Part shown: piece after piece, positions 38,422 through 61,546 of the stretch
Numbering within the stretch: position 1 is the first letter of the stretch
How the letters are laid out: the number at the start of each line of letters is the position of its first letter
Source: Rhizodiscina lignyota
Lineage: Eukaryota
DNA length: 64,000 bases
Assembly: GCA_010015805.1 (NCBI GenBank)
Contig: ML978130.1
Span: forward strand, 1,240,001-1,304,000
Reading direction: 5' to 3'
Made by a program: the position numbers and the translations under genes
The notes under the pieces: model-generated
What the model was told of the DNA's origin: nothing
Seen by the model: only the letters and a program-made list of their open reading frames with translations
Database searches by the model: none

Positions 38422-40645
38422 TGATCTTAACTGATCCCGCTCGCTGACTCAGCCTCGATTGCGATGTCGGCCTTGGCTCGGATGCCGGATGCGCGACACG
38501 GCAGAATGATCTGATATGCCTATTCGGGGAAAGCGCGCTGACAGCACAAACAGGGCCGCTGACGTCCTATTCCGGAAACGTCGTCGACGTGCTCGACGTC
38601 CGAGAAGTAGCTCGATGGACGATGAGAATGGGGTGACTTATGGCTGCGCGGATAGCAATTCGAAGTACGATGTGTAAGACGAAATCTGGCAGTGCGAAAG
38701 AATGAAATGAGAAGAAGAGGAGAGGGAGAACTAGCGGACGTTTGGAAGATACTTAAGTTGTTGTGCGACCAGAGGAAAGCGTCTACAACGCTTCGTCCCA
38801 ACCAACCTTTACTAGCTCCCATTCCACTGGTCGCTCCTGCTCTCATCATGCCTGTGCTCTCCAGCTTCACCTAGGTGTCCGCGAGCAGCAGCTCTGGTCG
38901 AGAGAGCAGTGGAGGCTTGTGAAAGTCCGGCGGGCCGCGATTTCGAATCGCCTCGCTGATGGTGGGAAGAAACAGCACCCCTTGCTCGAAATCAGCTCAG
39001 AGATGGATATGGGAAGATCCCCATTTCAGTTAAAAGTGCATTTAGTTCCCAACTTCTATTGGAATCCCATCTTTTCCTTATCTTGCCCCCGCTCGTCCTC
39101 TCCTCTCCTCCCTCCAACAATCCATTGTGCGGCTCTTTCTCTGACACATCTCATCCAAACCTCACACAGTCACGCTCCTGTTCATGGTACACTAGGACAA
39201 TACCCCTCCATCCGCCACAACCGCACCTGCTCCTGCTCCTCCTCTGAACGCCTGTGCTTCTTCTGGCTGAGGCACTAACCCACACTCTCGGGTCGCACCG
39301 ATTCCGCATGCAGCAACAACCATGCCAAGACGCTGCTGAAGCTGCTGAAGCTGATCTGCTCTCGGCCATCAGCGGCTAGTGGAACTTGCTCGCCGCGGAG
39401 TTTATCTACAGCTGCCTTCATGGGGAAGCTCTACAGCTATGCCTGAAGCAGACGTGAGGATTTCCGCGTGCCTGGTACCTGGAATCCGGAGGGAAATCCG
39501 CTGAGACAGCGGACCTACCCCGCTGTGCGCGATTCTCAATTGCCTCGCAACGAATGGACGAAGCTTTCGCAGCTATCAAAGAGTTGGGAATTTTCGGCCC
39601 TTTTCCATGGTTTGTATGAACATCGTCGAGTCACGTGTAATTGCACTCATCACCTACCGAACACGTCCTCCTAGCAATCCTAGCCGCATTCGCACAGCAT
39701 ACAAACCATGATTGCTTGGCCTTCCGGAAGCGGATTCTACGGTACCCCATGATGCAAGCCGCGGGGACTGAACCAGAGAGATCTCGAGTGCAACGGCGAC
39801 CTCAGAGGATCTCGCGGTGCAACGTTATCGAGTGGCAATTCGACCGCAGCTGTGGCGTATCTGTGGCGTCATTGCGCTTGTACACTATGCATGCCTCAAT
39901 GCCGTCAAGATTCCCAAGTACCGTGGAGAGCAACTCAACACATCACGATAGCGTCGAATTGATAGACTCCAACTTCAACTTCTCGTAAGTTGCCAATAGA
40001 TGCGTTTTGCAACGCCTCGCGAACAATTGCAACCTGGCAATCGTAGCGGATTGTGGTTGCCTTAGTTGTAAGGCCTTCAGTGGAGCATTGCAGGTTGAAA
40101 CAGGTATAGCGCCTGTAAGTGCTGGTACTCCAGGACTTTAGACCACGGGAACCAGAAGTCAGCCACTACGCTTTCTGACTATAAACAGAGCTAGAAAACA
40201 GCTAAACCAGTCTCAGTCTCTCAGTGGTCCGGGCACCTGCCTTACTGGTCCAAGTGCCTGCAGTTGTCTCGAGACAGGTTGCAAAACGCATCACTGCTGT
40301 CTCAGACTGGATATGTGTGATCAGCTCAAGCTTGGCCGCTAGAAAGTAGGATCCCCTGGAAATCAGCGGCCCGTGAATTTACTGGATTCCGGAAGTTGAC
40401 GGCGGGGTTGCATCAATTTTCCTTATCAATGTATCCAGAATACTCCGTAGCGCGAGACATTTATTCGCTCGGCTTCGACATTTCTGATTAGGCTCAGATA
40501 GTCTTCTTGGCGGATCTTTCTCGACATGAAGTCGTAATTGACCTGCATTGCATCTTTAGTGCTTGCTAGGGCTTTCTCGGTAAGGTAAGGTAATACACCT
40601 GCATGAAACCTAACCTTTTTGGTAGCAGCCCTGCGATCTTCCGAT

Positions 40646-40853
40646 CCGCACTGCAATTTTTAGCCCCAACGAAGACTCTACCTCTATCGCCAAGATACAG
40701 CCTCTGGAGCAGCACCCATGGACTTCAGCCTTTCTATCAACTCTATAAAACACTTAGCCTCGATATGACGCTCAAGCCGCCAATCGCAAACGCCGAGTCA
40801 CGACACGTGCAGTGGTGCACGCTTCGCCCTTCAGCCGGACACCAATCCGCTTT
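40646..40853 (+). repeat. Oriented intergenic element, copy 1 (long form)
   Basis: CCGCACTGCAATTTTTAGCCCCAACGAAG followed by about 180 bp alignable to 44594-44811, and TATCGCCAAGATACAGCCT alignable to copy 5. Confidence 0.85.
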
Positions 40854-40880
40854 TGAGAGGAGAGCCGACTGAATGTGGTC

Positions 40881-43084
40881 ATGTATGACTCTCGTGTTAA
40901 CGCCATCCTACGCGACGCCGGTATTTCTCCAAATCAGCAGCCTCAGTGTCACGCCTGTGTTGACCTTGACCGGCAACTTCTGAGATTATTCAATGTGAGG
41001 CGTGGTTTTGGCGAAAATGCCGTTCGCATTTCAGCAGTCAATGCTGGCTCCAGCGGAGGTTGTCAAGCTTGCGCGATGCTGCTTAAAGCGGTTAAAGCTT
41101 TCTTAGATGACCTTCAAGAACCGCTTTTGATCCAAGTGCACGATGGGGACACCATCACGCTTAGTGATACCCTCACTCTTACCGTCGTTCCACTGAATGA
41201 AGATGAAACTCTTCAGTATGACAGTTCTAGACATATCCGGCTCGAGATATTCTCGCTTCCCGGTATCATAAACTACTCCGAGTGAATGTATTACAGAGAA
41301 ATCTCTAATGATTGCTCACAGGCAGCCTCCCTTCAAAGTGGGATATAATAAGGCTAGCAAACATCGTCGCTCGCGATGCCTCTTCACCAGAGAGCGTCGA
41401 ATTCGTTCAAAGGCACGTCAATTCCTGTACTACCGTCAGTACAGGCCATTCCGGCTGCGCCTCTTCCAGGAGTTTTCCTCTACCGACGAGAGTTTTGCGC
41501 GTAGGTGATGATCATAACCATCCTTACCTTTACGAGTCCCAGGGCGAATCAATCAAGTACATCGCGTTGAGCCATTGCTGGGGAGGAGTGTCTCCTCTAA
41601 TCACCACTAAAGCGACACTAGATCAAAGGAAACAAGCTATCCCTTACTTCAGTCTGCCAAAAACTTTTCAAGACGCCGTTTGCATCACTCGGAAACTAGG
41701 AGTCGAATATCTATGGATAGACTCCTTGTGCATCATCCAGGACTCTCCCGAAGATTGGGCAAGGGAATCTGCAAGAATGGGCAGCCTCTACTCAAATTCC
41801 TGGATCACAATTGCCGCAGATGCTGCAGAGGATTCTAATACAGGCTTTCTGAGACCTCAGCAACGCGTCACGAAAGTCGTTGAGATCCCCTGCGAAAGTT
41901 CTGACGGTGCTGAAACATATGTTTATGTGCGCGAGAAGGGTAGTTATGCAAACCGAGCTCGTGCAGATCTCATAGACCCCGACACTGGTTATGTCCTCGA
42001 CAACGCGGAGATCACGCATAGAAGAAAACAGCGACACCGTTCGAGATTGTCCACGAGGGCGTGGGTCTTCCAAGAACGGCTACTCGCACCAAGGACTGTC
42101 CACTACTCTCTGGAAGAGACAGCGTATGAGTGCAGATCAGGCAGGTGGTGCGAGTGCACGATTTCCGAGAGAGTAGTTCCGCAACTTCCAGGAAGACGTC
42201 GGAATCGACTGTTCAAGGACATGTTACGCGACAAATGGAATTGGATTGTATTGGAATACACGAGGCTGAATTTGACATATGGCACAGATCGATTGCCTGC
42301 ACTGTCTGGCATTGCATCCTATCACCAAGAACGTATTGCGGCGTCGGGTGAGAACGATGAATATCTTGCTGGCTTGTGGAGAAAGGACCTTGCCATGGGA
42401 CTACTTTGGCGGGTGTACACAGACGATGACATATCTTCCCCCACTAGTTCGAGGCTGTCGAAGTACTGCGCGCCGTCGTGGTCATGGGCGTCTGTGACCG
42501 GAACTGTCCATTGGGAGGACGAGTACCAAATCTCGACATCGTTTGTCATTCTTGACAGTGTGTGTACGCCAGATGGACCGAATCGTTTCGGAAATGTCTG
42601 TAACGGTTATGTCAAAGTTCAAGGCTACATCGCTGCAGTGCAACTAGAAGCAGACATTTCTGTTGCTTTGCCGGCCGGGGACGACTTCCGCGGTGAAACA
42701 CCGATCAATGTGACCAGTGTTCAAACCCTCACAGAGCCGGATTTATCAACAACTGTTTTCTATCCTGATGTATGCGGAGCTGCCGTTGAAGTGTCGCCGA
42801 CAGTTGAATACCACTTCCTCTTGATATCAGAAGGCATTCCTGACTTGGGCAACGAACTGGCACCTGCAGGCCTGATATTGAAACGCAGCCCGAGTGATCC
42901 TTCAGTGTTCTCAAGAGTTGGATACGCCTGCACCGTGATTGAGGCCGAGCATTTCTGGCGCATCCAGACAAGCGAGGATGGACTTGACGATGATATCGAT
43001 GAGATACGTAAGGTTGCTGCGTATAGGAAATCGTGGAAGATGTGGATTGATGTTGCATCTCGGGAGATTCTGACCATAGTCTGA
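40881..43084 (+). CDS. HET-domain protein with N-terminal CxxC pairs
   Basis: Exons 40881-41262 and 41322-43084. CHAC/CQAC; YIALSHCWG, LWIDSLCIIQD, LSTRAWVFQERLLAPR, DRLPALSG, YLAGLW, APSWSWAS. Confidence 0.9.
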
Positions 43085-43410
43085 GGACAGACATGTTAGT
43101 ATGTGTGAGTTGCCAGTCTTGAGTGCACAGGCACTGGAGCACATATACAATCGCAAGAATAACTGCTCTGAACGTTGTCCTCCCTATGATAGGGGTACTG
43201 AGGGAGTATTTACACGATTGTGTATTGAAGCACAGAAATTGCGTAACAAGACAGAGATCATGCATTAAGCATGCCTCGGGGCATCTCAACAACAATTCAA
43301 CTCGCCTTAATTATTCTCGGTCCCTCCCTTTCTCCGTCATGCTTTGGTCTTCCTCACTTTCAGTCGTTCCCCACGCGTGTCTGCCTTTGCTAAAGCTAGA
43401 TGTAGCCACA

Positions 43411-43830
43411 TCAAGCAAAATTGAGCGAGAGGAAGCTAGCTCCAGTCGCTACGGTATGACAGTTGGTGGGATTGTTCGTCAAATCCTGGTTCCCACCCGA
43501 CGACGCTATCGTGCAACTGGAATCCTCCCAATACATGATCTTCAGGTTTCGCTTAAAGAGTGACTGACTAACATCCAACGTGCGCCCGCTGAAAACGATC
43601 CTGCCGTCCGAAATCCCGAAGCATTGGCCCGGCTCAGTGAAGAATATTGCGTCATTCGATTCGGCGTTGTCTGAAGGCGCGAAGGGGACTGGGCAGCCTT
43701 CGCTTTGACTGCCGCAGCAGTTGTTGGACTCCCAAAGTTGGACTATGACAGATCCTTGGGCAGCGACGTACAGTTTAAAGGTGGAGAAGAGGACAAGAGG
43801 TACTAGGGAGGCAGATTGTATAAGCTGCAT
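43411..43830 (-). CDS. Small secreted cysteine-containing protein (effector-like)
   Basis: 139 aa, hydrophobic N-terminal signal ending about VAA-Q, six Cys in the mature part, no recognisable domain. Confidence 0.75.
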   Translation of the reverse strand: MQLIQSASLVPLVLFSTFKLYVAAQGSVIVQLWESNNCCGSQSEGCPVPFAPSDNAESNDAIFFTEPGQCFGISDGRIVFSGRTLDVSQSLFKRNLKIMYWEDSSCTIASSGGNQDLTNNPTNCHTVATGASFLSLNFA

Positions 43831-44475
43831 ATTGGGCTTCTTCTTTCTTTTCTTGAGAAGTAGAGGACAAGTGGACAGGAGACTCCAGATGAATCTGGAT
43901 TTTAAGAGTTTTTGGGTTCCAAGATCTCTTATATAGACCCATTCAATCCTACATTGACCTGTTCGTCCATTAACGTTCTAATCACTCCTCTAAAAGGGTT
44001 AATGACAAGGGTAGAAGAACAGGAATTTTAAAACGCGACACAGTCTGTCATTGTGAACTCTATTAGAAGAGAGCTCTAAGATCTAGTTCTATTGGGGCTA
44101 GCAATACTGGTGGACTTACCGAAGAGGAGCAATGGTCTAACACTCTAAGCTAAAAGGGGATATTGAACGCTTACTTCAGCTATACAGTTAAGAGCAACAC
44201 TGTCCAGGAATCGCTAACGCTAGTGTATTAGATGAAATCTCAAGTCATTCGGGAGCTGTACGTCACCACATTTACTGGTTCGGTAAAAGGCAGCCTTTAT
44301 CTTCCATATGCTAAACCAGTTATGACATGTGTGGTTATACCGCTTTGATAAGTGGAGTCCCCTCCTTACGCTAAATAATCATGGAAGGGATCGAAGGACG
44401 CCAAAATAGGCAATGTTGAGGGTGCTCGTCGACTGAGGGCACATGTAGTAGCAAATTTGTCTTGAGGTTCATGCT

Positions 44476-44552
44476 ACACTGCAATTTTAGCCTCAGCGAA
44501 CGTTTCCTTACTTCTAGCCTCTCAAGAAGCGACAATTTATCGGATATTAGCC
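44476..44552 (+). repeat. Oriented intergenic element, copy 2
   Basis: ACACTGCAATTTTAGCCTCAGCGAAC, then TTTATCGGATATTAGCCTC. Confidence 0.8.
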
Positions 44553-44593
44553 TCGCTGTGGGACAGTCGTATAGCCCCTGAGGTGGTGGCGCT

Positions 44594-44811
44594 GCACTGC
44601 AATTTTAGCCCCTGCCAAGGCTCTTCCTCCGCCCTTCAAGCAGGGCTCTAAAGTACTTCATACATAACTCTACCTCAGCCTTTCCGTCAAATCATTAACA
44701 AATCGCATTAGCCTCGGCATGTCGGACGCTCATGCCCACCAATCGCAATCGGCGACAAGCACCACATGTAATAGCTCACTTTCGAGCTGCAGTCGGGCGC
44801 GAATGCACTTT
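44594..44811 (+). repeat. Oriented intergenic element, copy 3 (long form)
   Basis: GCACTGCAATTTTAGCCCCTGCCAAGG; shares TCAGCCTTTC, TTAGCCTCG, GACGCTCA and CCAATCGCAA in the same order with copy 1. Confidence 0.85.
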
Positions 44812-45484
44812 CCGCATCTCGGGAGAAAGCTATGATAAGCCTACTAATGTATTGCACATGAAATCACGCATTTCGGGAACGTGGGCGTGTCAGTTTTCCT
44901 GCTGGCCTGTGATATCTCAGCCTTATTCGCCGAGGTGAATCACGACTTCGATGTAGATGAAATTTCCGCGCTTACGACTACTCTTGTTTTGAGTGCATTT
45001 TGCTATTGAGCGCTGAAGTCTGCTAATTCTACTAGACATTCCTTTCTGAATCTCTTTTCGGCGTAAAGGTTTTGTAGAACAAGGCTGAAAATTAATCGTC
45101 GGCAACTTTTACAGCTCAAACTTGGCCAGGCTGAGATATTTTAAACCCCTCGCAGGGCAAGTCGCTCCAATAGGAGCTGCAGAGTCAATTACGCCATGTC
45201 GTGTAACCTTGAAAATTACTCTTCACGTCGAGACCAGGTCACACGGCATATCGATCAACCGGACTGTCGACAGTGAATGGTGAACAGTGAAATACCGAAA
45301 CTGGCCGATCAGTAGATCACAGCCTCGCGGAAAGTTTTGGTGATGTGCTTGATCATACCTGCCTCTGAAGGCTGCCATGGAGGAAAGGCTTGGAGCTGTT
45401 TCTCAGGCTGCACCTTTCTTTTCTCTCCTCTACCTTGGTTAATATAGCAGAGATCGAGCCGAATACCCACCTGCCCGATTTCCA

Positions 45485-47658
45485 ATGGATGAGGACCCGT
45501 TTCACTCATCGCGCCGTTCGGCGTTGGACTCAGATTCGGGAGGAACTCTTGTTCCACTTTCGATTATAGAGCCTGAGTCCAGTGCCCAGCCTCTGATAAA
45601 CTCATCAGGCTCACATCTATTGGGTCACGATTCAACTTCGACAAGATTCCGAAGTCATTGGAGCCCCACTTCAAGCACTCTACCGCCCACCAAGGAAGCA
45701 CGTTCTGAGCATAGATATCGGAAGTTCAACATCATTGCATGGGCTCTTGAAATAATTGCTTTATTCATAAGCATTGCATCCATGGCTGCCATTGTAGCAG
45801 TACTACGAGTTGAAGATAAGCGACCACTTACCGCATGGACATTCGCAACGTCGGTCAATACCGTCGTGTCAACTTTAGGGACAATCTCGAGAGCTACTCT
45901 AGCATTCGCCATCAGTGCTTGCATTGGACAGCAAAAGTGGAATTGGCTTAAGCGACACCCAGACCGTACGGTTGCTTTTGTCAGATTTGATGAGGCCAGT
46001 CGAGGTCCTTGGGGAAGCGCTCGACTTCTTTTTTGGCTCAATATCCGGTATGTACGACCCTGGTACATTCAATATCTTGCTGACGTTAAAATAGGCATTG
46101 GGCATCAGTTGGCGCTTTAGTCACTATCGCTTTCCTAGCCTTCGACCCATTTCTCCAAGCGATAATCTCCTACCCTGGTCAGCTTGATCCAATCTCTGAT
46201 GGTGGAATGCCGGCGATTTGGCGCACCGACTACTTGAACATTGGAAAACTACAAGACGTGACCGCAGACGGTGGATTTGGCACGGCAGAATTGGGAGGAC
46301 CTGATGGTAGTTCTACTGAGGCTCATCTATTTCTCACGAAGGCCGATTTCAACACTGTCGCAGCAGTCAACAACGGGTTCTCGAATATGTCAGAGTCAAG
46401 CATCATCTCTCCAAGGTTCTCTTGCCGGACTGGAAATTGCACATTTTCGTCTTATACTTCATTGGCATTCTGCAGTTCTTGCCATGACGTCTCCGGGTAT
46501 ATTCGAACATCTCATGGCAACGCTAGCACCATTACGGAGGGAACCGATTTTGCACAACCCGACAACATCGGAGGCCCGGCCGGACCTTATACACAGTATA
46601 GCCTGCCATACTCTCACATTAAGAATTATGATGGGCTTTCGGGAACAGGAGTAACGGATCCTGGAACCATATCTTACACACTGATCACGGTCGGGGTTAC
46701 TGCGAACTATTCGCAAACTGTGAGCTTCCAAAAAAGCGACACGATGCTGATTGCATTTGCCGTTATGAGAGCAAATGAAGGCTACATCAACAACAAGACG
46801 ACGTGGGAGAACTCAAAACCGATAGCGACGGAGTGTGCCTTATACTTCTGCGTCAACGCCTACGACGCAAACATTCAGGATGGAAAATTGAACGAAACCG
46901 TCACAGGATCGTGGGCCTCTCGATCACCATCTTCTTGGAAAGACTACCAATCAAGCGACTACGCTAGCAATGTCACCGACAGCTCAGCAGTAGTGAATTC
47001 TTTGAATACGGACAGCCATGAGCCACTCTACAGTAATGACACCATGCTACCTCGAACCGATCTCCAGCTTCTTATTCCAGACGATCATCCAACGGGACTG
47101 CCCCGAAATTTGAGCGGTCCATTCAACATCACCCAAGCCACGGTCCAGAGCACAAGCTCATTCCTCATACAATGGTCTGTTGGGACTGCCGGAACTTTAC
47201 TGGTCAACGAAAGTCCATATGGAGACAACAGCCCGGTGCCATCGGTTCTCGACGCCCTTCAAAACTCTACAAACCTAACCACGACCTTTGCCAACGTTGC
47301 TCAGAGCATGACGTATCAGATCCGATCGTCCTCGTCCGTCCCTCACAATGGTATTTCACAGCTGTGGGTGACGCACATCAGAGTCCAATGGACTTACCTT
47401 GTGTTACCTGCGGTCGCCTTGCTTGGTGGTTGCGTTTACGTTATCCTCACGCTCATTGAGACGTTGCACCTCAAGCTGCCTGCTTGGAAGGAAAGTGCGC
47501 TGGCGACATTGAGCTACGGTCTGTCGGAGGAAACTCAGGATTTGCTGAGAGAAGCAGATGCAACTGGTGACATCGACGCGGCTGCACAAGGGATTTCAAT
47601 TCGGCTGGCGGAAGATGGGGATGGGTTGCGGCTTCAAACTGTTTCCAATCGACCTTGA
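45485..47658 (+). CDS. DUF3176-like membrane protein with large luminal glycosylated region
   Basis: IGQQKWNW, FDEASRGPWGS; intron 46048-46094 gives HWASVGALVTIAFLAFDPFLQ; CRTGNCTFSSYTSLAFCSSC; ECALYFCV; WKESALA; many N-x-S/T sites. Confidence 0.85.
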
Positions 47659-47808
47659 CAGGAGTTTATCTGGACCTTGAGCATCCGGGGCGGATCATTT
47701 CTAGTTGATACACATGAGATAGTACGATACAACATGATACCTACATACTCATTGACCATACCCATTTCTATTTCCGCTAGCAGACCTGAGAATGTGTGCC
47801 AAATAGGC

Positions 47809-49390
47809 TCATGCATTCTTTGGAGAAATTATGTAACAGTACTGATTGGAGTAGTAGACATTGTTCTCCACAGACCCCATGGGCTCAAGAATCGGACATA
47901 CCGATTTCCATTGGTTCGCTTCGCCTTCTTGCACAAACTTCGCCCCAAACTGGCTGAAGATGGCGGTCTCCTGTTGCATTTCTTCCTTGTTGTATGTGGT
48001 GAACAAAGTGGGATGCGGGGCATTGGCAAGATAGCGAATTGTTGGCATCCAATCTTCCCTTGCTTCCTGGGAGAATCCAGATTGAAACGCGACTGCTAGG
48101 TCAGGCCGGTCGTAGTGTTTCGTGCCAACAAAATCATGGTATGGACCACGATATAGGAAGATTGATCGTGTGCGGTCCAGAGAGGAGCAACTCGAGCAGC
48201 ATCCTAGCATTAATACATCCGCAGACACTGCTTCTTCTGGGATACCCGGGCCAACAAGAGTCATATGAAGTTTCTTCAGTGAGGGCAGGAGATGTAAGAT
48301 TTCCTCGAATACCATCAAACGCTCCAATTCCCATGGATCTGCTCCAAGGAGGTGAAGGTTAATGGACGTTCGGGTGCCGAGATCCGGGAAGAGTCTTTCC
48401 AATGCAGCGAGGATTGTAAGTGGGATGGTCGTTGCCCGAGTACCGTATCGCAAGAAGCCCGCAGCTGCCAGTTCTTGGGGGTCATTTGAACCAGGCCTGA
48501 GATCTGCTGTGACCTGAACACCACTCAAGTCTTTGTCTGATATCCGCGTGTAGTATTCGTACCAGCCTCCGGCGGCAGAGAGTGGAAGATAGGTGTCCCT
48601 GGGGCTTTGCGTACATACTATTGTCAAGGTGGGCTGATTTGCCTCTCTTTGCCTTTTGTTGTGTTCTATCATCCACTTCTCGTCCTCTGCGAGTTCTTGA
48701 AACGCTTGGCATTCGTCAAGAGAATGCTTTTGCGGACAGTCAGAGCAAAACGCGGCAATTTGACAGGCATTGCAATGTTTGAGTTCAGTCGTTCCACCGA
48801 GCTGAGATTGTCTTCGATAACAGTGGGAACAAAAGAACTCGTATCTGATGTTACCATTAGTGATCAGCTAGGTATATGGGAATATTATGAAGACATTGGC
48901 TCATTGGTGTTATTGAGATGAGACAATTAGGGGAGACCCGCATTTCAATGAATGGAAACAATGAACTGTGTCAAAACTTACAAGATGAGTCGTTCTAAAT
49001 TTTTATCAAAGTCTGGGGTCTGCGCTTTCAAAGTTCGAATCTCGCTAATCTAAAATGAAAAATGAAAAATTAGAGAGATCTAACAGGTGGAGTCGCTGTA
49101 GGCACCTTTTCATCGAAGAAAACCTCCCAGTTCCTTCCAGTTGGAGGCGTTGATGTCCTCGTCTTATTCGAGGCAACTAGAAATTTACACGTCTTCTTAT
49201 GACTGCTCTTCCAGTCCTTCTTCTGGCACTCTGGGGAGCAGTAAGACACACGTTTACATGCTGCGCACTTCTTCAGCTGTGAGGCGGATTTCCAGCAGGA
49301 AAAACAGCTGCCTTGTTTGAGGGCGAGTATTGGGGTGAGAAGGGCTGGCTGGCCTGCCGGTGGGTGCCCCGTATTGCGTGTAACCTCCAT
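47809..49390 (-). CDS. MYND zinc-finger protein with MSS51-like C-terminal domain
   Basis: CFSC...CAACKRVSYCSPECQKKDWKSSHKKTC; downstream exon has TIPLTILAAL, LHLLGA, FEEILHLLP, PDLAVAFQSG, FTTYNKEE; multi-exon. Confidence 0.85.
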
Positions 49391-49859
49391 TCTCAATAGT
49401 CTTTATCGTTATAAATGGAATAGAAGAAGAGATGGTGCTAGATAGATGAAGATGAACAAACTGAGGATGAGAATCATGAAACGAAGAGAGTGGGGCGAAA
49501 AAGAGGACCGTGCTCACCGGTCTTCTCTGAGTCTGCACCTTCACTCTTGACACTTCAAGAGCAACAACAAATTATCTACGGCTCCTTTCCCATTTATCAT
49601 CATTATGATGGCTCAAGCGACATAACGAACTTTGAAAGTTGGGTACAATCGACTCCGAACGCAAACCACACCAACACACCCGAATATCAAGGATATACTC
49701 TACCTGCTGTCATGCTTCATAGCCCGAGCATTCACGGAGCATTCAGATGTGTATTTGCTACCACAGCCTATCAGAACGAGGCCCTCTTTTCTGACTAAGA
49801 AGCGGAGCTCAATCCTAATTGGTAGCTAGAAATCCGTGTTTGAAGCCCAATTCAGGGTC

Positions 49860-49923
49860 GCCGCACTGCAATTTTAGCACCAGCGAAGGCAGTATCGTAG
49901 GTGGGTTATCAGGCTTCAGCCTC
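49860..49923 (+). repeat. Oriented intergenic element, copy 4
   Basis: GCCGCACTGCAATTTTAGCACCAGCGAAGGC, then TTATCAGGCTTCAGCCTC. Confidence 0.85.
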
Positions 49924-50153
49924 GTCCAACTTCAAAACAGGAGCGACACATAAATCGCTCAAAGTCAATCAATAAGGCATACCGGCATAAGGCTCATGCA
50001 TCCTTCCAAAGACATTTCAGGCATTAAAGAAGAACCCTGGTAACGAATGATATTTGAGGCATCCAAATATATTTCATTTTGGATTTCAGGCACCTTATCA
50101 CCATTAACACATATGTTCTAACTCTTTCCCTTATAGATTGGACGAAGGGATTA

Positions 50154-51582
50154 TCAATGAAGCTCCAGGCTATGAGATCCGTTCTCCTGCACGCTGCCAG
50201 ATTGCTCTATCGTTTCCTTCCAGACGTTCCCTATATCGTTTGAGTAAATCCACGCCATGTCTTTACCACCTCTAATGACCTTGACTCTAACTCTATCCTC
50301 CTCACTCGGAAGTTCAAGGGCTTCCAACCGAGCAGCTCTCAATTTCGCCTCAGATTCGAGATGTGCGTACATCCTGCGATAGTAAGGGAGTCTAATTTCA
50401 TTGAAAAGTCTCAATGCTTTGACCAAATCATTCCTGAAATATGACAGAGCTTGAGCAAGGATCCATCCATCTTCCATTGCGAACCCAGCCCCGGATCCAA
50501 ATGCACCGGAAAGAGCATGGGAGGAGTCCCCGACAAGGGCAATCTTGCCCCAAGCAGTCAAGTCCGATAGCTCAGGCCCTGAAAAGGCTGCAAATTCTCG
50601 CCAAGCGCCAGTTTCTATTTCCTTTAGCGCCGTTTGGATTTCTGGGAGATATTGCTGTATGATCTGGTCAGCGATTTCGTGTTTGAGAACATTTGCTCCT
50701 AAATACGAACAGTGAAATGCGATTCGACGTATTCATTCGTCACTGGCACGCCCCAAGCTGATTTGCTCGCTCCATGGATTGCAGGATTTTGATATTCCCG
50801 TGCGGCGATCTCACTTATGCCCTCTCCTACCGGGGAGAAGTAGACATGAGAGGTCGGAAGGTGCCACCAGGCGGTGGTGTCAAATAGCGGATGAAGAGCT
50901 TTGAGTTCGTTCCGTGGAAGTAGAGCGCGTCATATTGTTGTGCCTGTAAATTTAATATCGTAGCCTGGCCATGCGCTGTCTCGAACGACCTGAAACATAC
51001 AATATCAGCAACAATATCATGCGAGGAGAGTGATCTTTCAGAGACGCACAGACCGAATGCCATCGGCTCCAATGACAAGGTCTGCAATATCGGTTGTTCC
51101 ATCAGCAAAGAATAGTTGAACTCCGTGCTGTCCGAGGTCTTCAATCCGCTCCAGCCTTTTCGAGAGCTGGAGGACTCCGGGCTTTACGTGCGATAGTAAA
51201 GTGGACTGCAGCTTTGTGCGTTGAATCCGGACTGATGTGAAGCGTCCTCCATCTGGACGTTCAGCACGATATAATTCTTCACCAGTTCTTCCGTTGCTTC
51301 ACGAGCATGCTCAGCTTCTGTACAGTTCTCGTGACAAAGGACTTACAGATTCAAGACCGTCAGGGTAGGATGGCCGCCGGTCAGCGATTCAGCGACTCCC
51401 AGTGAATCCAAGACATTCCAGGTATTCCTCCCAATACTGATGCCAGCGCCAACTTCGCGGAGTATTTTTGCCTTTTCATAAATGACCACATCAACGTTAG
51501 GAACCTTTGAAAGTGCAATGGACGTTGCCAACCCGCCAGGACCGCCGCCGACGATGGCCACTTTGAGCGGTCGAACAGGCAT
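50154..51582 (-). pseudogene. FAD-dependent monooxygenase (salicylate hydroxylase-like) with one in-frame TGA
   Basis: Four exons. GGGPGG, REVGAGI, VIGADGIRS, LVGDSSHALSGAFGSGAGFAMEDG. Exon 3 reads KFTGTTI-TGA-RALLP (stop at 50930-50932); the rest of the frame is open. Confidence 0.75.
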
Positions 51583-52008
51583 ATCGATACTCGTCGTGAT
51601 TCATGATGATCTTTAAATTTGGCCAATTTTTCCTTAAGATTTAGCATTTTGAAGCCATCTCTTGATAAGTGACAGAGCGTCATCAATCACGTGAATTGCG
51701 TGCGCTGATACCTGGAACCTTAAGGTGGGTCGTCCATTTCGGTACCCTCGATTCCAGCCCATCAGCATCTGATTTCATGCGTTCTGAGAGGTAACCTTGT
51801 CCCTATCACCGCTATCACTGACAAAGGTGGTAAATTTGGGGTTAGATGTTACCTCTTGACGCCAGTTGTAGATCACATGCACCGAATTATAGTAGTACCG
51901 ACGTTCTCGTTGCCTTGGTGGATAGCTATTCTGGTTCCATTTAGCACTCAGCGAAGGCTGTCTGCTGAACCTGGACTCTTGTGGTATGGCAGTACGCCGT
52001 AGTTCACA

Positions 52009-52060
52009 GCACTGCAATTTTAGCTCCAACGAAGGCTTTATCACCAAGATTCAGCCTTAG
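52009..52060 (+). repeat. Oriented intergenic element, copy 5
   Basis: GCACTGCAATTTTAGCTCCAACGAAGGCTTTATCACCAAGATTCAGCCTT; a partial copy TTTAGCACTCAGCGAAGGC lies at 51940-51958. Confidence 0.85.
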
Positions 52061-52118
52061 AGTTAGGACTCAGGAATCTGACCAATCGGTTTCAAGGAGC
52101 TGACTGTTGTAAGGTGCA

Positions 52119-52145
52119 GCCGCACTGCAATTTTAGCGCTAGAGG
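52119..52145 (+). repeat. Oriented intergenic element, copy 6 (core only)
   Basis: GCCGCACTGCAATTTTAGCGCTAGAGG. Confidence 0.8.
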
Positions 52146-52980
52146 ACGTTTGTCGTCAGGCAGTACCCTTCACCTTGCAGCATCACGGCGACAACGCAAG
52201 AAATCGAACGTACAGGACGACCATATGAGTTAGATGTCAGTAGCTGAGAAACTAGAAAGCATGTACGAGACTCCATGTATCTAGATAGTCTTATGTTTGA
52301 GACAAAGCTCCGATAGCACGCCCAGCCACCATGAGACTGCATCTTTCTCCGCAAAGTTGGAATCCATCTCTGATTTTGGATTTTGGGGTTGCAGTTCATT
52401 CGGAATGAGAGATAGTTGTAGGCTCGTCTTCAAGAGCGAAATTGCACATCGAACAGTCATCAGCATAGCATTCAAAGTCCCTAGTTGTACAGCCCTAGAG
52501 TACAAAAGCTGGCTCCCCCAGAGAATGCAAGAAAGCAAAAGAAGCAACGCTCCTCCACCGAAACTCCTTCTCAGAACCGTCACCAGACGAGTCTGGTGTA
52601 AGATCCTTCGGGTGCCTCGGGAGAAGATGCAAGCCGCCGCACCGAAATGCCAGAAAAAAACATCGTGAAAATGCATTGCCCATGTTGCCGAATTCTCCCC
52701 GCTTCCCATTCCCGGAAAGCATTGGCGCCAGCATATCGCAGAGGAACACCGGTGATTATGCCGCTTGTTGAATGCCGTGAGGGAGAAATGAAGTAAAATG
52801 CTTGTGCGCAGAAGCGAGAAAAGTCAAAGCACAAGCAGAACAGCTTGCATATGAAGAAGAAAAAAGGAAAATGTCATCCGTAGACACATCAGTCCGTCTC
52901 CGTATTAGGCCGTCGAACACCATTTTTAACCGTTCCATGGCTTTTTTTCCCATCATAGGTTCGCCGGTAACAGAAAGTCC

Positions 52981-55900
52981 TTACGCCAGAAAATCATCCA
53001 TCTCTACATCCGCCTTTATGCCATCACCTTCAGCCTCCGGTGCATCGGCGCCAAAATTAAGGTCAGCCGTGCTCGTCAGACCAAGTGCCTCACCTGCCAT
53101 GCTGGCAAAGTATCCAGGCTCATCTTGACTCGCCTCGCCACCCACATTGGCAGCCTCGCCGTCAAAGCCACTGAAGCTCGGTGCAGGACCTGCATCGCTA
53201 ATGTTGCGCTTGTGTCCAGGCTGGTGCGCAGTCGGACTGGTGGAGCCAGGATCGAACAGTGCAGGGTCGATTGCTGCGCCCGCTTCAGCGGGCGAGCCAG
53301 AGGTACGGATGAATCCTGCCGAGGCTCCAGTGAACATACTGTTGTCATCATAATCCACACGCGCAGGGGCGGGTGCGAAACCAAAGCCAGAAACGGCAGA
53401 CTCGCGACGACTGCCAGGGACTGAGGCGCCTTGAGGCGCGGGCTTGTTGGCTCGGAAGGCCGGCGGTTCGCCAGGAGGTGTGCGAGCACCGGGAGCGAAT
53501 GGCGGTGGCTCGCCGGGTGGCGTGTGGCTTCTGCTGTTCGTCTTCACGACCGTCTGGCCCTGTACACCAACTTTGCTGTCCTTTCCAAGCGCATCAGAGT
53601 TCTTCCGTGGGATCTTCTTGGTCCTCAGATGCACGGGAAGATCATCAGGATTTTCGATGCCCATCTCCTTCATCATCTTCTGCTGCTTCGTGGGACGAGG
53701 CTTGCGAGTGCTTAAGGAGTGCTCAATCTGGGGCGGTGCGTTTGGAGCGACCGGGGCCCAGCGATGTAGCTCTCTTCGAAGGAAGTTCGTTTCGTCAACA
53801 AGCAGGACATCAGCACCTTCAATCTTGCGAAGATAGAAGCGCTGAACAGAGAGTTCGTCTGGAGTCGACATCATTGGGTTCATGAGGTGAGTGATGTGGC
53901 TGCGGAATTGCGAAGCTTGATCGACAATATTGTTGAGGCACTCCTCCTCATCAGGCTGGAACGGAAGACCAGATAGTTCATCCTGCCAAGCCATGAGGTC
54001 CTCGAGCTTAGGACGAGCCGCATCGCGAGGGATCTTGACGCGGTAGTCGCAAATAGGACAAGTGTATTTGTCGTCCTCCTTGATCTTTCCGCGAGCGATC
54101 TTGAGGCATTTGCCGTGGTACCTATAAATACTTCTCTTAAAATCGAATGGAACTCCAATGATAATTGCAGTTGGAAAATAGGGGGGAACTTACCACTCAT
54201 GACAGATTTCGCACTCGATCATCATGCCAGCTTCCGGCTTGCGGCAGATGCAGAAGACATCGCGGTTGGGGTCTGCGACATCCATTTCGTGGTCTTCGGT
54301 AGGAGAGTTTGCTCGAGATGAAGGTTCGACGGGCATCCGGGGAGTGTCTCTCAGGTCGAAGCAGGCCTCGTTGCGAGACTCAACCCACTGCATGTGCTGA
54401 AGTAGGATGTGTAACGGCGCATTCGCTTTACCAAAGAGCTTCTTACCACGACGCATCCAGTCCTCATGCCTCTTCTGTTCTCGCTCCAAGTCCAGCGTTC
54501 CAGGTGGACGGCCAGTAAGCTCAGAGAGACCCTCCATAGCTTCCTTGACTTCCTTATAGGTGGGTCGTTGTCGCAGGTCTGGGTTTTTGCTCGCTTCGTA
54601 GAGGGCGACGATCTTCTCTTGAGCATCGCGCTGCTTCTTCAGAATGGAATCGACGTCTGCGAGAGTTTCGCGAGAGACAGGAAGGTCTGCGGCTTGAGTC
54701 GAGAGCGCATCCAGTTGCTGGTAATGTACGTTTTCAGCAGCCATGATTTCTTTGGCTTTGGCTTCCCAGAACTCGCCTAGGCTCTTTTTCTCCTTGAAGC
54801 GCACAATAAAGCCGTCCGTCTCAGGAATTTCCAGGTCGAGGCCTTGCTGAATGAAGTCTGAGATTTCCTGCAGCGTGCCGATCTTCCCAGGTTTTTGGCG
54901 TTCAGTGGCATGCTCGTACCACTGCAGTTGCTTGACCAATTTCTCGAGCTGATCGACTTCAGGAATGTCGACATTGTAAGAGCGGCCGAGCTCGGCTAAA
55001 TCTTCTAGCTCGGCCAAACTTCGGGACTGCGGCGTGCTCATGACCTCAACGGCTTGCTGCTGGAAGCTGGCAATGTTTTCAGCCTTTTCTCGCAGGACAC
55101 CAATCTCCGGGCAGTCGAAACCAATGTCTTCGGCGGAGCGAAGTAACTTCCGGATGTTGTCAACATTGCGAAGTTCCTTGTCGCGCTCTTCTTGCTCTGC
55201 CGCCTTTGCTATGCTTTGTTTGCGCCAGGCCCGCTCGTTCTTTCTGCGATTCTGCTGTTTTCTCGTCGTATAGTTGGTAGCTTCCTCGACCCACTCCTGA
55301 CAGCGGTCCACGAATTTCCGAAGATCAGGGAGCTCCTTCAGCTCCCACTGGGTGTTGATCTTCTCGCCATCAGCAAGGATTGTTCGCAAGCTCTTGAGAG
55401 GCGGCGCCTGATCTTCTTCCAGCAGCGTATCAAGCTTCTCCAGCCATGTCTCCGGTGTCCGGGCAACGTCAACAACTTTCTGAACTGTAGTCTTGAGCTC
55501 CTTGTCTGTCAGGCGGAGCTGGAGAACATGGTGTCCACCGGCAGCCGAGAAGCGCTCTTCAGCCGGCAAGTCGCAGCACTCGTACTGGCCTGCATGCTCC
55601 AAGCACATGACCTTATCTGTCTTTTTGCAAATGTACCTTGACAGATAGCTGAATGATTTGCAGAAAGCGCAAACGCAGTCGTCATCGCTGATTTCCGCTG
55701 GATAATCTTGCACGGCAAGGTCGCATTGTGGGTCGGTTGCATGAGGCTCGTCCAGTGGGCAGGAGTGTTCCTTTGTGGCCTTGTGAGCTTTCACGTATTC
55801 CGATCGAACCCTCATTTCCTCGTCCATCATCCGCTCAAGAGCGGGTCCAAGCCACCTGGCGGTCTTGATGGAATGGTCACGCGATGCCGCAGAAAGTAAA

Positions 55901-58534
55901 AGCTCGTCATGACAGAATACTGGCTGTCGCCTGAACATGCGCAGTCTACGCACAGCCTCCTCACCATACGGCTCCCAGTCCTGCGGCGCAAAATTGACTG
56001 CTTCGTTGAAGTTGAAACCATGATTGAAGCCTGCATGATAAGCCTGCGGGAATGTGATGACGAACTGGCCGGCTCTCTGATCGAGCGCGTATACCCTGAC
56101 ACCAGCCTTGCGAAGTCTCTCCGGAGTGAACAGGGTGGTCAACTGATACAACAAATCAGGATTTGATTCGAAGAGCTCCGGGACCAAATCACGCATCGCA
56201 TTCTCGAGCTTCTCAGCATCTTCGGCCGGTACGCCATACCATGTCTTAGTTGCACCGAAATGCTGATAGTTGGCAGAATACGTGCTGTGGTCCTCTGCAT
56301 GCCAGCAAAAGCACGAAAAGCACATGCCAACGTACAGCCACGGCACGGTCATGCCGGAAATGTCCGTTTTGATATGTCGGAACAGTGAATCCTTATCCAG
56401 GGGCAAGTTGTTCAGGTTCCACGCATCGGAAGCGTATGCGTCCCGAGGGTTCTTCTCCAAGGTTGGGAAGCCGCTACCGCTGATGTGCGAGTGGATGTCC
56501 GCGCCATACTCCACTTCAACAGTCTCAGTCAAGCTCTCGGTCAATCTCCAGAACTCGCGCTCGATATCATCCTCGGTAGTGGGGCGCTTGTTGTTTATTA
56601 CCGGGTCGAAAGGCATTATTGGGTCGAAGTGCTGATTTTTGAAGAGTTGCGCGCGATACTGAAATTGTCGAAGGGAATAAGTACCGCCCTCCTCGAAACC
56701 AAAATCACCGCTTCCGACCAAGCACCGGGGACAGAACCAGTCTCTCGGTGGCATTGCTGGCAGCGGAGGATCGAGACACTGGGGATGGTATCCGAAATCG
56801 CATCCATCACACAGGGCCAATGAGTACGAATCTCCAGGTCCGCCACAACTTTCGCACCTTGTGCCAGGTTTGTCGTTAGGTCCACGAGGAGGTAAGAGAC
56901 GAGGTGCTGCTAGCCGAGGCTGGGTCATGTGCGATCCAGCTACGGTTGGTGCACCATCTTTCTTCAGGCGCTTGCTCCTTCGTCCAGCTTCCGAGTCACC
57001 ATTTATCATAGGTTCACCATCGACGGAGAGCGGTCGCTTCATCGGGCTTGGATTGAACGGCTGCATGTTCGGAACAGATGAGTGCGTAATGGCGGAGGGT
57101 GCGAGATTGGGAGTATTAGCAGCAGACAATTGTGGACTCTCGAAGGACCTTTGTGGCGTTGCATTGTTCGATTCGGTTTTGTGAATTCCATTTGTCGCAT
57201 TGATTGCAGAAAAACCTGATGTTGGCGGCGCAGCATTTACAGCGGTGAATCCTGAATTGACAGCAGTAAAGCCGGAGTTTACGGCAGTAAAGCCAGACGA
57301 TGACCTCGGTGGCTCTGGAGGTCGCGCTGGAACAGTGGGAGGCGCTGGAGGTGCTTCATGAGCAATCGGTGGAACTAACTCTGGAGGGAGGATCGGCTGT
57401 TGCGGGGATGCGCCATGCATCGAAGCATTGAGCGCATTTGAAGCGCGCATTGCCGGGGAATCAGCGCCAAGACTCGAAGGAGTGTGCTGGTGAACTTTGA
57501 GTGGCGACCTTGAAGGCGACGGCGTGTATGGGCCACCATTTTCGAACTCCTGCTGCTGGCGCACTCCAGGCTTGACCTGCGCAAGATAATCTTCGAACGG
57601 CAGCAGCCACTTCTGATATGAGTTCTTGAGCGACGTTGACAAGGAAGACATAATCTTCCCACTATAGCCAAGGAGTCGTCCGATTTCTGCCCACTTCTTG
57701 CCCTTGCATACCCGCTCGAATCCTCCTTGCGCCTCGACAAGGTTCTTCAGTTTGTACAGGTCGAGAGGACGCTTATCGACGCTTGGAAATCGGTTCAAAT
57801 TCGTGCCATTGCGCTGTTTGTGGAACTTTGCAAGTTGATCGAGATAGTTGAGATTCGCGCGAGTGCCTACATAGTCATCTGTTTCAGTAAGGCAGTTCAA
57901 CAAGGTGGGAGGATCAATTTTGTTTGTACCTCCTTCAACGATATTGAGCTCCTGTCGACGTGTTCGGAAATGGAAGCGCTGCGAGTGAATTAGCATGGGG
58001 GCATTAGCCTAAAGAAACTGAAAAAGAAACATCTCGTCGGAATGAAGAGAACGCAGTTAGAAGTGTTACGAAGAAATAGTTTGCATGCGAATCTGAGTAA
58101 TGACGTACCTCAGTATCGATGGCAAGGTCCGGATTCCAGCTATCAGGCGGTATGATTTTGACGATACCGTACTTCCTGCCCTCTTCCGCAATGCTCTTGA
58201 TGAATTCAATCGGGTTCCTGAACTGTTCTTCAGTTGGCCTATATGTCGGGGCCTCCTGCAAACCAAAGAGGCGTTGTGGTTTGGTATATTCCCTCGCCAT
58301 ATTAGGCTGTCCTCGTCGCTCGACCGTCGCCATGTCCAGCTTCTGCGCCTTGAGCGAGCTCAGTGGCTTCGGAATCGTCCCGTTGGTCGTCGCATTCATT
58401 AGGGGACCTCCGCCCATGCGGCCCATTCTGCCCTGCGGAGTGCTGGCACCAGGAGTACCGTTGGCAGGGCTGTTTCGCATGGCGGATGCGCCCATCGTGG
58501 AGGACGAGCCTCCGACTGCAGGTGCATGCACCAT
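52981..58534 (-). CDS. KDM5: KDM5/JARID1-family H3K4 demethylase (JmjN-ARID-PHD-JmjC-C5HC2-PLU1-PHD)
   Basis: JmjN APTYRPTEEQF...YGIVKIIPP; ARID LDLYKLK...KKWAEIG; PHD CESC...CDGC...HPQC...WFCPRC; JmjC CWHAEDH, AYHAGFNHG; second PHD FCICR...CEICHEWYH. Introns about 57979-58108, 57867-57929, 54122-54193. Confidence 0.96.
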
Positions 58535-59405
58535 CTTTTACTCCAAGGCCGCTAGCCGGCCCAGCTCAAGTTGATATCCGCAGGATGTATGGAATGGTGG
58601 TGATAATGGTATGTGTAGTAGACGGCCGCCTCCGTGTCTCTCTGTGAACTAATTCTCGACACCTCTCCCGGCTCTCTCACAAGCTTTCTTGACACATGTA
58701 TGCTCCGCCAAGGGTGCTTGCTGGCTCGGCACACGCATGCGATAAAACGAATGGACGGGGTGAAGGTGCGTCGATCGGGGGTCGGCGTGGTCAGTCTCGT
58801 GAAGTCGTCGGGCGGTGGTGGACGATGGGGGACGAGAGTTTAGCGGTGCGGAGTGCGGGAGAGGTTGGAGAGAGACGGCGCTGATGTGGGCTTCTGCGCA
58901 TAAAGCTCCTTCGCTGCTTGAGGCTCGTCGCGCTAGCCCCCTTTCGGCCGTCCCGATCGGAGGACGAACGCTTTCTAGCAAATCTAGCACTTCGCCCATG
59001 AATAAGCGCATATTTTCCGATCAGCAATTTCTGCATCTTTGGGGCGTTGTTTTGGAATATCGGTCCTTGTTAAGACGCAAGTTTTATTGTGCGGACGAGA
59101 GAAAAATAGCTTTCATCTGCTCTGTGGGAGCTCTGGCAATCACATTCCCAGGGTTAGGGTTTTGCGCTGTACGCCTAGCGCGCCGCCAACATGGAATCAT
59201 TCTCAACGCAAATCGAGTATGACGACAACGTCCAAGGCAGCTGAAAGTTCCATGCATGTGCTGTCATTTATCTGACATCTCCATTTTTGGATAATCGACC
59301 GAAATATGTACAGGAAGGAACTTATATACAAGAACAGAAGTCAACGACAATTTGCAAACCAGCTTCCCCCACTCATTGTGAGTGCCACACAGAGTACACT
59401 GTGCT

Positions 59406-60830
59406 CTATATCTTCGCCGCTGCAGTAGAGCAGCTAACACATCCACCAGGTCCATTCTTGGCACTAATGGCCTGGACACCGGGGAAGTACATCGTCGGTA
59501 TAGCAGGAATCGGGATGCTCATTGTTGTGCCGAAATCGGTGCTGAGATCCGCCGCCATAGTTGGAGCCGCATAGCCGCTCGGCGTCGCGGTAATGGTACT
59601 TGTCACAGCATCATATTCGCCCGAACCAGACTCTAGACACCCGCCGGTGCCGTGTGCCGAGCGGCAGATTTCGTACTCAGAGGTCCCTGTCTCAGTCCAC
59701 ATGGCGAAATCGACCACTTGCATATTTGTGCAAGGAGCCCCATCTGCGCACTTGAATTGCATCGGACCGCGCTGGATGCCGTTCGAGCAGGTGCCTGTCC
59801 AGTTCGAGAACGTGATGTTGTCGAGCTGCACACCGTCACCGGCGACAGGGCTCATGCTGGCCCAGTACTGGTCGACATTCAGGCTGTAGGCATTGCCATG
59901 GCCAATGAAGTTTTCGAGGACGACATCTTTCATGGTGCCAGAGCCGCCGTTTGACTTGATCATGAGCATCTGGTTCGAGCCCCAGGTGTACACGTTGCGG
60001 TAGATGATATCGCTGATGTCTACGTCTGCCCCAAGAGAGCCGAAGGCACAGCCGCCGGAGAGGTTGCAATAGATGTTTTCGATGAGGATATTCTGAGCAG
60101 GCGATTTGACGGTGACGCATTCGTCTTTATTCGTGACCATGACCTTTCATTCACGTTAGTCAAAATCCTCATGTGAGTGTGAGCAAGCGGAACTCACATC
60201 ATGGATCCAGATGTTGGTCGACCAGACATCGACTCCATCTAAGCCTCCGGAGTTGCCGCCTCGGATAGCCACGTTATAAACCTCTCCGTTGGAGCACGTA
60301 TCCATCGTGAAGTGGAAAGCAGGAGAATCAACCAATGCAATATCATGAACTGAAAAGTCTTGGACCTCGTAGAACCTCAAGAGACGTGGGCCACTCAAGC
60401 TTCCCTGCTGGTGGAAAATATACCCATTCCCTTGAATCGCACCTCTACCCGTTCCACTCATAAACTCAATGTCCGAGCTGTGCTCAATCATGATCATATT
60501 GCCACCGTCCGTACCGGTTCTGTTGATGACTCCATCAAGCCGAATGACCACACCCGTCCCGCCGGTGAGCGTTACCCAGGTATTCATCGCCCAAGTCCCG
60601 CTTCCGATATAAATTGCGCCGCCCGATTTGCAGTCGTTCCATGCCGCAGAGAGTGCTGGTCCGATGTCTGTCTTGCCGTCCGCTTTCGCACCGTAGGCCG
60701 TCACAGCGCAGACCTTCTTGCGTTTATCCGCGTAGGACGTCGTGGGGCCAACGGAGCCAGAGAGCTGTGCGGCGGTGAAGGGAAGGAGAAAAGAAGAGAG
60801 CAAAAAGAGTGACTCGAAGTTGAAACGCAT
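59406..60830 (-). CDS. rhgA: GH28 endo-rhamnogalacturonase A
   Basis: Signal peptide then [57 protein letters not shown]; intron 60144-60197. Confidence 0.92.
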
Positions 60831-61423
60831 GGTGAAAACGGGCCAGCCGTGAAGACGGCTGCTGAATGAATGGCAAAGAATGGAAAAGAGGACGAATGCT
60901 CAACCTACCAAAGAGATCGGGATGCCTTGAACTTCATATTGCACATGTGCTTCATCTAGGTACTCCGTAATGTGCGGTCGGGCGAGAGCATCCTTGAGAG
61001 AATCAGTCGGCTTATGATTTGAGAGCGGTTACGCGTAATTGCGGCGAAGAATTACAGTACCTATTACGGGCGTTCAAATGCCCTAGCGATATGACGGCTT
61101 AAAGCTGAGGTCGAGGCGACGCCGATAATTTGAGGCTTTGGCGTAGCCGCTTTCGGTTAGAGATCGTCGTCCGTTTCAATCTCGCGTGTTTGATGTTTAG
61201 TCGACCAGCCGCAGGGGCTGGCAGCATCTCCTTTAGCGGCATGTCTTTATTCTATCTGAGAATGACCCTTGACCGGACGTCCATCTATATATCAATACCC
61301 TTCCAAGGTGGTAGGGTAGGTAGCGAGGACGGAACATGCACTCAATCTTAGTCCACTTGGCCTAGGTCACGTGATAGCCTTTGAGACGTGGACACGTGCA
61401 CTGAGACCGCAGTCTGTCAAAGT

Positions 61424-61492
61424 GCACTGCGATTTTAGCCCCAGCAGAAGGCTTCGTCCGCCACACCAACCTTTTGAAAGTGCTAAAGATTC
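61424..61492 (+). repeat. Oriented intergenic element, copy 7
   Basis: GCACTGCGATTTTAGCCCCAGCAGAAGGCTTCGTCCGCC; the tail resembles copy 3 (CTTCCTCCGCC, CTAAAG). Confidence 0.75.
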
Positions 61493-61546
61493 ACTGCAGC
61501 CCCCGAAGTACGCAACTTTCTTTCAGTTTAAAGTAGCTAGTACTGC

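Follow-up and report, generated by a model that had tools for sequence, protein, structure and literature searches.

A motif of about 28 nucleotides (nt) recurs in the intergenic DNA of a 64,000-nt stretch of the Rhizodiscina lignyota genome (contig ML978130.1, positions 1,240,001 to 1,304,000), called the window below. We propose that its copies are orphan 5' ends, or heads, of long interspersed nuclear elements (LINEs) of the I/Tad type of filamentous fungi, left without a body. We assign this interpretation a probability of about 0.6. It is based on the recurrence of the same motif in other fungal-looking contigs, on the exact point at which the homology between copies begins, and on the open reading frame (ORF) that follows the motif in two LINE lineages.

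The motif starts with the 16-nt core GCACTGCAATTTTAGC, which is followed by a semi-conserved 12-nt tail, N-Y-C-N-N-C-G-R-R-G-R-G. With up to two mismatches allowed, the core was found in the window six times, always on the + strand; the expectation from shuffled sequences is 0.03, and none of 100 shuffles reached six. A 27-nt consensus with up to three mismatches gave four matches against 0.00 expected. The head of a seventh copy starts at 40648 and has a T-run that is one T longer than in the core. We also made a weight matrix of 29 columns from 142 metagenome instances and rescanned both strands of the window with it. No further copy appeared on either strand, none at all on the minus strand and none in the first 40 kb.

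A first-pass annotation, made from the sequence alone, had reported seven co-oriented copies with none reversed and none in the first 40 kb, and the motif search, the shuffles and the weight matrix agree with it. Four of the starts it gave (44476, 44594, 52009, and 61424) coincide with core matches, while the other three (40646, 49860, and 52119) lie 2–3 nt too far left; the last two of these core matches start at 49863 and 52122. The partial copy reported at 51940 was confirmed, although it has lost all but TTTAGC and the tail. The copies span 40648–61452. They are all intergenic, as had been stated, and their alignment confirms a sharp left edge and a similarity that decays rightwards. The heads form five clusters, four of which hold at least two heads spaced 68–118 nt apart.

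The same 28-nt motif is present in dozens of fungal-looking metagenome contigs, where it adjoins core and accessory genes alike. These contigs were scanned with a 19-nt pattern, i.e., the core plus NYC, which gave at least 123 stretches; 119 of them were taken in as loci (designated by L numbers). The pattern imposed the exact 16-nt core. At least four of six unforced tail features were present in 73 of 106 distinct instances versus 4 of 35 in a control of viral contigs, in which the pattern had 53 chance matches without the tail; about 14% is expected by chance. Information content is limited to positions −1 (A or T) through +27, and nothing is conserved beyond them on either side. According to relaxed scans, the first two positions vary, with G at position 1 in 74–86% of instances. 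ORFs neighbouring the metagenome heads match Eisosome1, HbrB, HET, RFC-type AAA, DNA polymerase epsilon subunit B, MetRS, MFS, and ZIP. An ORF of at least 60 codons follows the motif in 15 of 173 instances versus 3 of 120 controls (3 of the 15 belong to a LINE family and 2 are bacterial), and the first ATGs after the motif are weakly clustered at +29 to +47. Between the window and the loci there is no nucleotide similarity beyond the motif. Few dispersed families of unit bodies were found among the loci, most cross-contig matches being duplicate or orthologous contigs. In a full-text literature search with the motif and its reverse complement, no relevant description was found among the papers listed.

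About 20 of the metagenome matches (L002, L004, L009, and about 18 similar ones) represent one conserved gut-bacterial coding stretch, a chance match without the family tail. This stretch and a few other bacterial contigs were set aside by eye and by Pfam. At three loci, L054 (3001–3060), L040, and L033 (minus strand, near 3019), whose contigs are related, a telomere-repeat-like run CCCTAACCC is situated about 40 nt after the head.

Most pairs of window copies share only 28–41 nt. Whenever the similarity of two copies extends beyond the motif, it sets in at motif base 1. Thus, the copies at 40648 and 44594 have about 205–218 nt in common from base 1 (local alignment score 63; best of 30 shuffles 27), and those at 40648 and 52009 have 56 nt. 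Contigs of sequencing run X1 aligned to positions 41600–61550 comprised the source contig and one look-alike, on another contig of 303 kb; it matches 41 nt of head 5 (52009–52049) and has its loose end exactly before 52009. The aligner misses matches of 28 nt, and therefore this comparison gives no copy number. Among the metagenome loci, L052, L019, L095, and L106 are 95–98% identical over 250–320 nt from motif base 1 and have unrelated upstream flanks. Further groups share 314 nt (L036 and L079), 86 nt (L035, L065, and L104), and 78 nt (L059 and L118). Of 203 interior boundaries of cross-locus homology, 10 are no more than 4 nt away from a motif edge at both loci compared. Within clusters and arrays, each unit is cut short where the next one starts. 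Homology from base 1 together with this cutting of units by their successors indicates a unit with the motif as its 5' end and not a site within duplicated promoters. The idea of a one-ended element terminus, which the first-pass annotation had put forward, is thus borne out for several families.

The nature of the unit is suggested by the four copies of the L052 family. There, an ORF opens at +64 (63 nt past the start of the motif) and represents the N-terminus of the proteins P0001 and P0002. P0002, a protein of 427 aa, combines a coiled coil with three CCHC knuckles; its relative P0004 exceeds the curated Pfam cut-off for zf-CCHC. Among 15 longer homologues of this ORF1, 13 carry Exo_endo_phos, RVT_1, and/or RNase H, with RVT_1 in 10; all 15 are named fungal records (Aspergillus, Penicillium, Trichophyton, and Talaromyces). 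A coiled coil, CCHC knuckles, endonuclease, reverse transcriptase, and RNase H are the make-up of I/Tad-type non-LTR (long terminal repeat) retrotransposons. A second locus, L025, has a typical head and then, about 290 nt on, a degenerate frameshifted piece of an ORF1 coiled coil that is nearest to P0004 (hidden Markov model of the ORF1 region, E 0.001). P0004 and P0002 are 28% identical; therefore, two distant LINE lineages begin with the same head. A gag-like ORF1 is thus present downstream of the motif in metagenome contigs, intact in the L052 family and degenerate in L025. None of the loci examined has ORF2 physically downstream of a head, their contigs ending too soon. Relatives of the LINE ORF1 were also sought in viral contigs, with 42 pattern matches and none confirmed. 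The first-pass annotation had counted a match to a known mobile-element fragment against its own readings, and something close to it was found, since the motif heads LINE copies.

A LINE needs its own promoter downstream of its transcription start. Since such an element must carry an internal promoter, the head is most likely a putative internal promoter or start-site signal; it may also be a 5' RNA signal used by the element's own proteins. A role of this kind would explain why the head stays the same in spite of divergence elsewhere in the 5' region. LINEs of the Rhizodiscina lignyota genome would presumably bear the same head. The orphan heads of the window would be units of 47 to about 220 nt that have base 1 of the head as their first base and carry no LINE body; they are set in five intergenic clusters. 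Units cut short by their successors would be expected if the LINE reverse transcriptase reached the 5' end of its RNA and then jumped to another RNA, or if heads recombined unequally. Heads without bodies may have spread through serial template jumps, in which the enzyme passes from an RNA copied to its 5' end to short 5' transcripts, through short cDNAs captured at DNA breaks, or through unequal recombination between heads. For non-LTR reverse transcriptases, serial template jumping is described in excerpts of two papers (PMC8594491, PMC8857657).

Several points weigh against this origin of the window copies. No LINE ORF, neither ORF1 nor ORF2, lies within the window, and the link to LINEs is a matter of contigs of other fungi, not of the Rhizodiscina lignyota genome. 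For over 90% of heads, no LINE coding sequence can be recognised downstream; the exceptions are five loci from two lineages. Ordinary LINE copies lose their 5' end and keep the 3' end, and 5'-truncated copies normally dominate. The reverse is true of the heads of the window and the metagenome, whose 5' end is preserved and whose 3' end is variable. A flank match of at least 9 nt, as expected of a target-site duplication, was found in 3 of 148 heads versus 4 in the control. The 3' ends of units are not A-rich, and strand composition around the motif is flat, with no asymmetry. The invariance of the core among the metagenome matches is there by construction, because the search pattern forced it. 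Copies 1 and 3 have an intact core and bodies that are 68% identical; likewise, the possibly orthologous L036 and L079 have a single difference in 32 core positions against a background of about 84% identity. This better preservation of the core could be due to selection on the source elements or equally to selection on the genomic copies. A unit of 70–78 nt bounded by two inverted heads, found with different flanks at L059:1372–1448 and L118:251–320, looks like a miniature inverted-repeat transposable element (MITE) and is at odds with a simple LINE origin.

Some of these points suit another explanation, in which the motif is an element of the host: a protein-binding site or a start-site signal that LINEs insert beside or capture by 5' transduction, the orphans being the primary, selected form. 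Orphan heads far outnumber LINE-linked ones, and in both comparisons given above the core has changed less than the bodies. The placement of some copies also fits. Copy 1 is 233 nt upstream of the first in-frame ATG (40881) of the ORF preceding the HET ORF, the L054 head is 53 nt before an ORF leading into an RFC-like ORF, and CCAAT is mildly enriched at +25 to +75 after the motif. However, duplicated promoter segments would not show homology that starts at base 1 in several families. Nor do the copies favour an orientation or distance with respect to genes. When 104 instances were compared with ORFs of at least 150 aa, the downstream neighbour shared the strand of the motif 16 times and lay opposite it 22 times; for the upstream neighbour these counts were 20 and 32. 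The L063 head sits between convergent genes. The consistent orientation and distance expected of a promoter cis-regulatory module were therefore not found in these instances, and insertion fits better than promoter design. The four minus-strand ATGs near copies that the first-pass annotation had named in favour of such a module (43830, 49390, 51582, and 60830) are all present.

The relation of the motif to the LINEs themselves also bears on the host explanation. No motif copy among the loci abuts a 5'-truncated LINE, which argues against the motif as a LINE target site. So does L025, where LINE sequence follows a complete typical head and would thus require a different "insertion point". In the four L052-family copies, the repeated unit includes the tail, which is similar to that of the motif family once shifted by one base. 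Nevertheless, the 5' junction would look no different if a site-specific LINE inserted beside a host motif. We keep the host element as an unlikely explanation that still deserves some weight.

A putative regulatory role of the window copies is possible. In its strongest form, which appears distinctly unlikely to us, the head would be a portable putative start-site signal common to fungal I/Tad LINEs, and hence the fungal equivalent of Pr77 (see below); orphans would be selected as promoters, antisense promoters, or boundary elements that serve host genes, and arrays would spread by retroposition that copies only RNA 5' ends. Copy 1, given its distance from the ATG upstream of the HET ORF, would be an example.

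Local co-orientation is a trait of the whole family: among the 164 accepted motifs at 72 loci, adjacent pairs are on the same strand in 76 cases and on opposite strands in 16. The median spacing of same-strand motifs is 128 nt, and pairs more than 400 nt apart are divided into 11 same-strand and 5 opposite ones. In the array of L024, a stretch of 2.5 kb contains 18 core matches (up to two mismatches), with 17 on a single strand; L057 and L064 have eight and seven matches, each all on one strand, and L049, L011, and L059 are mixed. Spacers within arrays measure 47–150 nt and are gene-free. Positions 1–2493 of L024 are almost wholly an array of 17–18 heads, with about four recurring unit types in a higher-order repeat and a 164-nt inverted duplication at 398–561.

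The strand counts bear on a further view, in which the motif would form the end of a mobile element that moves as DNA, be it a transposon with terminal inverted repeats (or a MITE) or a rolling-circle element with one conserved end. The sharp outer edge of the motif would suit such an element, as would the unit with two inverted heads at L059 and L118 and a convergent pair of motifs 370 nt apart at L026. Yet same-strand pairs prevail, and the 16 opposite-strand pairs are equally divided between divergent (8) and convergent (8) ones. The window has no inverted partner of the motif, as the first-pass annotation had noted. Target-site duplications are absent from the heads compared, k-mer and homology searches gave no conserved second end, and no transposase or Rep/helicase domain was found among the approximately 50 window ORFs scanned. 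We consider a DNA-element terminus very improbable.

We give next to no credence to integron-like recombination sites that insert gene cassettes, one of the two readings under which the copies had been reported. The copies in the window are indeed all co-oriented and the units are bounded by motifs, as in an integron attC array with its co-oriented repeated sites and variable DNA between them. In addition, the homology of L036 and L079 ends just after a second motif. The one-strand arrangement of the five window clusters, however, has a chance of 1 in 16 by simple arithmetic. At the break in L036, an AT-rich insertion sets in, with TG as its first bases. Most inter-motif units are 47–300 nt long and gene-free, so that the supposed "cassettes" are mostly stretches of about 100 nt without a gene. 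The motif also adjoins core genes (RFC-like, DNA polymerase epsilon subunit B, MetRS, eisosome, and HbrB), and HET genes at 28.9–33.2 kb have no copy. In contrast to attC sites, the fungal motif is not palindromic and has no dyad symmetry, its copies have no shared fold, and the genome is eukaryotic. The linked recombinase or Rep/helicase gene that the cassette reading called for was looked for, and the scan of the window ORFs revealed no integrase, transposase, recombinase, Rep/helicase, or reverse-transcriptase domain. The inserted stretch of L036 (2038–3246), directly after the head, is AT-rich and resembles the products of repeat-induced point mutation; it may be an LTR-element insertion relative to L079.

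With the heads attributed to I/Tad-type LINEs, the closest analogue appears to be Pr77 of trypanosomatids, with promoter activity of the fungal head being putative. Excerpts of the relevant papers describe Pr77 as the first 77 nt common to LINEs, elements similar to short interspersed nuclear elements, SIDER, and DIRE elements, with an internal promoter (PMC1874656, PMC4748587, PMC8190864). An excerpt of a further paper adds that it also folds as a ribozyme of the hepatitis delta virus (HDV) type (PMC3185411). As in the L1Tc/NARTc, ingi/RIME, DIRE, and SIDER elements, a short conserved sequence forms the extreme 5' end of LINEs and is also found in short or degenerate intergenic non-coding relatives; here, two LINE lineages and many body-less units start with the motif. 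The systems differ in host and LINE clade, and also in that Pr77 has 77 nt and a ribozyme while the fungal head has about 28 conserved nt and no ribozyme.

An HDV-like ribozyme at the head was considered and rejected. Rfam gave no match at E up to 1 over 40–62 kb. When 100-nt segments of six window heads and one LINE head were folded, no common structure emerged (Z-scores −2.2 to +1.7). For the first helix, the complement of the first 6–7 nt was absent at suitable positions, with 14 of 146 instances having it at scattered places.

The I/Tad1-type LINEs of Pezizomycotina resemble the units described here in that the ORF after the head is homologous to their ORF1 and occurs in fused gene models with endonuclease, reverse transcriptase, and RNase H. 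The window differs in having heads only, and its copies lack 5' truncation, target-site duplications, and a 3' tail. In search-listing text on Tad1 internal promoters, no conserved 5' end is described. Regular tandem promoter monomers precede the L1 body at the 5' end of mouse L1. The fungal arrays, too, consist of co-oriented 5' units of a LINE (their promoter role being putative), but these units are irregular (47–300 nt), of differing types, and mostly bodiless.

The features of the motif family in the window are listed in Table 1. The candidate at 40545 has a noise-level score and is favoured by position and strand only; it is listed with 74% identity in family D2.

Table 1. Heads, units, and head remnants of the motif in the window (positions within the window; PWM, position weight matrix score)
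Feature	Position	Strand	Details
Possible decayed head	40545..40573	+	PWM 10.6 vs 12.6 for best of 20 shuffles; 103 nt upstream of copy 1
Head copy 1	40648..40676	+	core with extra T, plus tail
Unit 1 (head and body)	40648..40854	+	homologous to the 44594 unit from base 1, about 205 nt
Head copy 2	44476..44503	+	A at position 1; unit ends after 118 nt where copy 3 starts
Head copy 3 and body	44594..44812 (head 44594..44621)	+	body of about 218 nt homologous to unit 1
Head copy 4	49863..49890	+	singleton; exact match to 27-nt consensus
Decayed head	51930..51957	+	recognisable from 51940; 79 nt before copy 5
Head copy 5	52009..52036	+	exact consensus match; first 56 nt resemble unit 1
Head copy 6	52122..52149	+	core exact, tail diverged; 113 nt after copy 5
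Head copy 7	61424..61452	+	core with one mismatch, tail with one extra base
Partial head	61492..61508	+	without AATTTTA; 68 nt after copy 7; read from the sequence

The genes around the copies had been labelled in the first-pass annotation mostly correctly. Pfam confirms HET, DUF3176, MYND together with MSS51_C, KDM5, GH28, and a HapX-like bZIP with a Hap4 motif. The label of an FAD monooxygenase is weaker: FAD_binding_3 was matched at E 0.076, and the N-terminus is of the GxGxxG type. A point that tells against the first-pass annotation is that the copy-free first 40 kb is more than core DNA, as a gene of the PKS-NRPS type (polyketide synthase–nonribosomal peptide synthetase), an MFS gene, and two more HET genes are located there, all without any motif copy. 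The first of them, at 11432–19927, is a large hybrid polyketide synthase gene with KS, AT, DH, ER, KR, and ACP followed by a condensation domain, and the MFS transporter gene is near it, at 6.9–9.9 kb. The two HET-domain genes of this motif-free part are at 28880–30199 (+) and 32363–33247 (−). Directly downstream of head copy 7, an open frame of 573 codons (61547–63268, minus strand) has no Pfam match at E up to 5.

For annotation, these results mean that the repeats do not mark gene cassettes, and a tempting false lead is removed. If the heads are what we propose, fungal LINEs bear a short and deeply conserved 5' signature that stays constant across lineages whose ORF1 proteins are only about 28% identical. 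Such a signature would be a handle for finding full-length LINEs, and it would help to locate their internal promoter and the host factor recognising it. The head-only units and co-oriented arrays are the opposite of 5'-truncated LINE relics, and they would point to a copying of RNA 5' ends that is undescribed for fungi.

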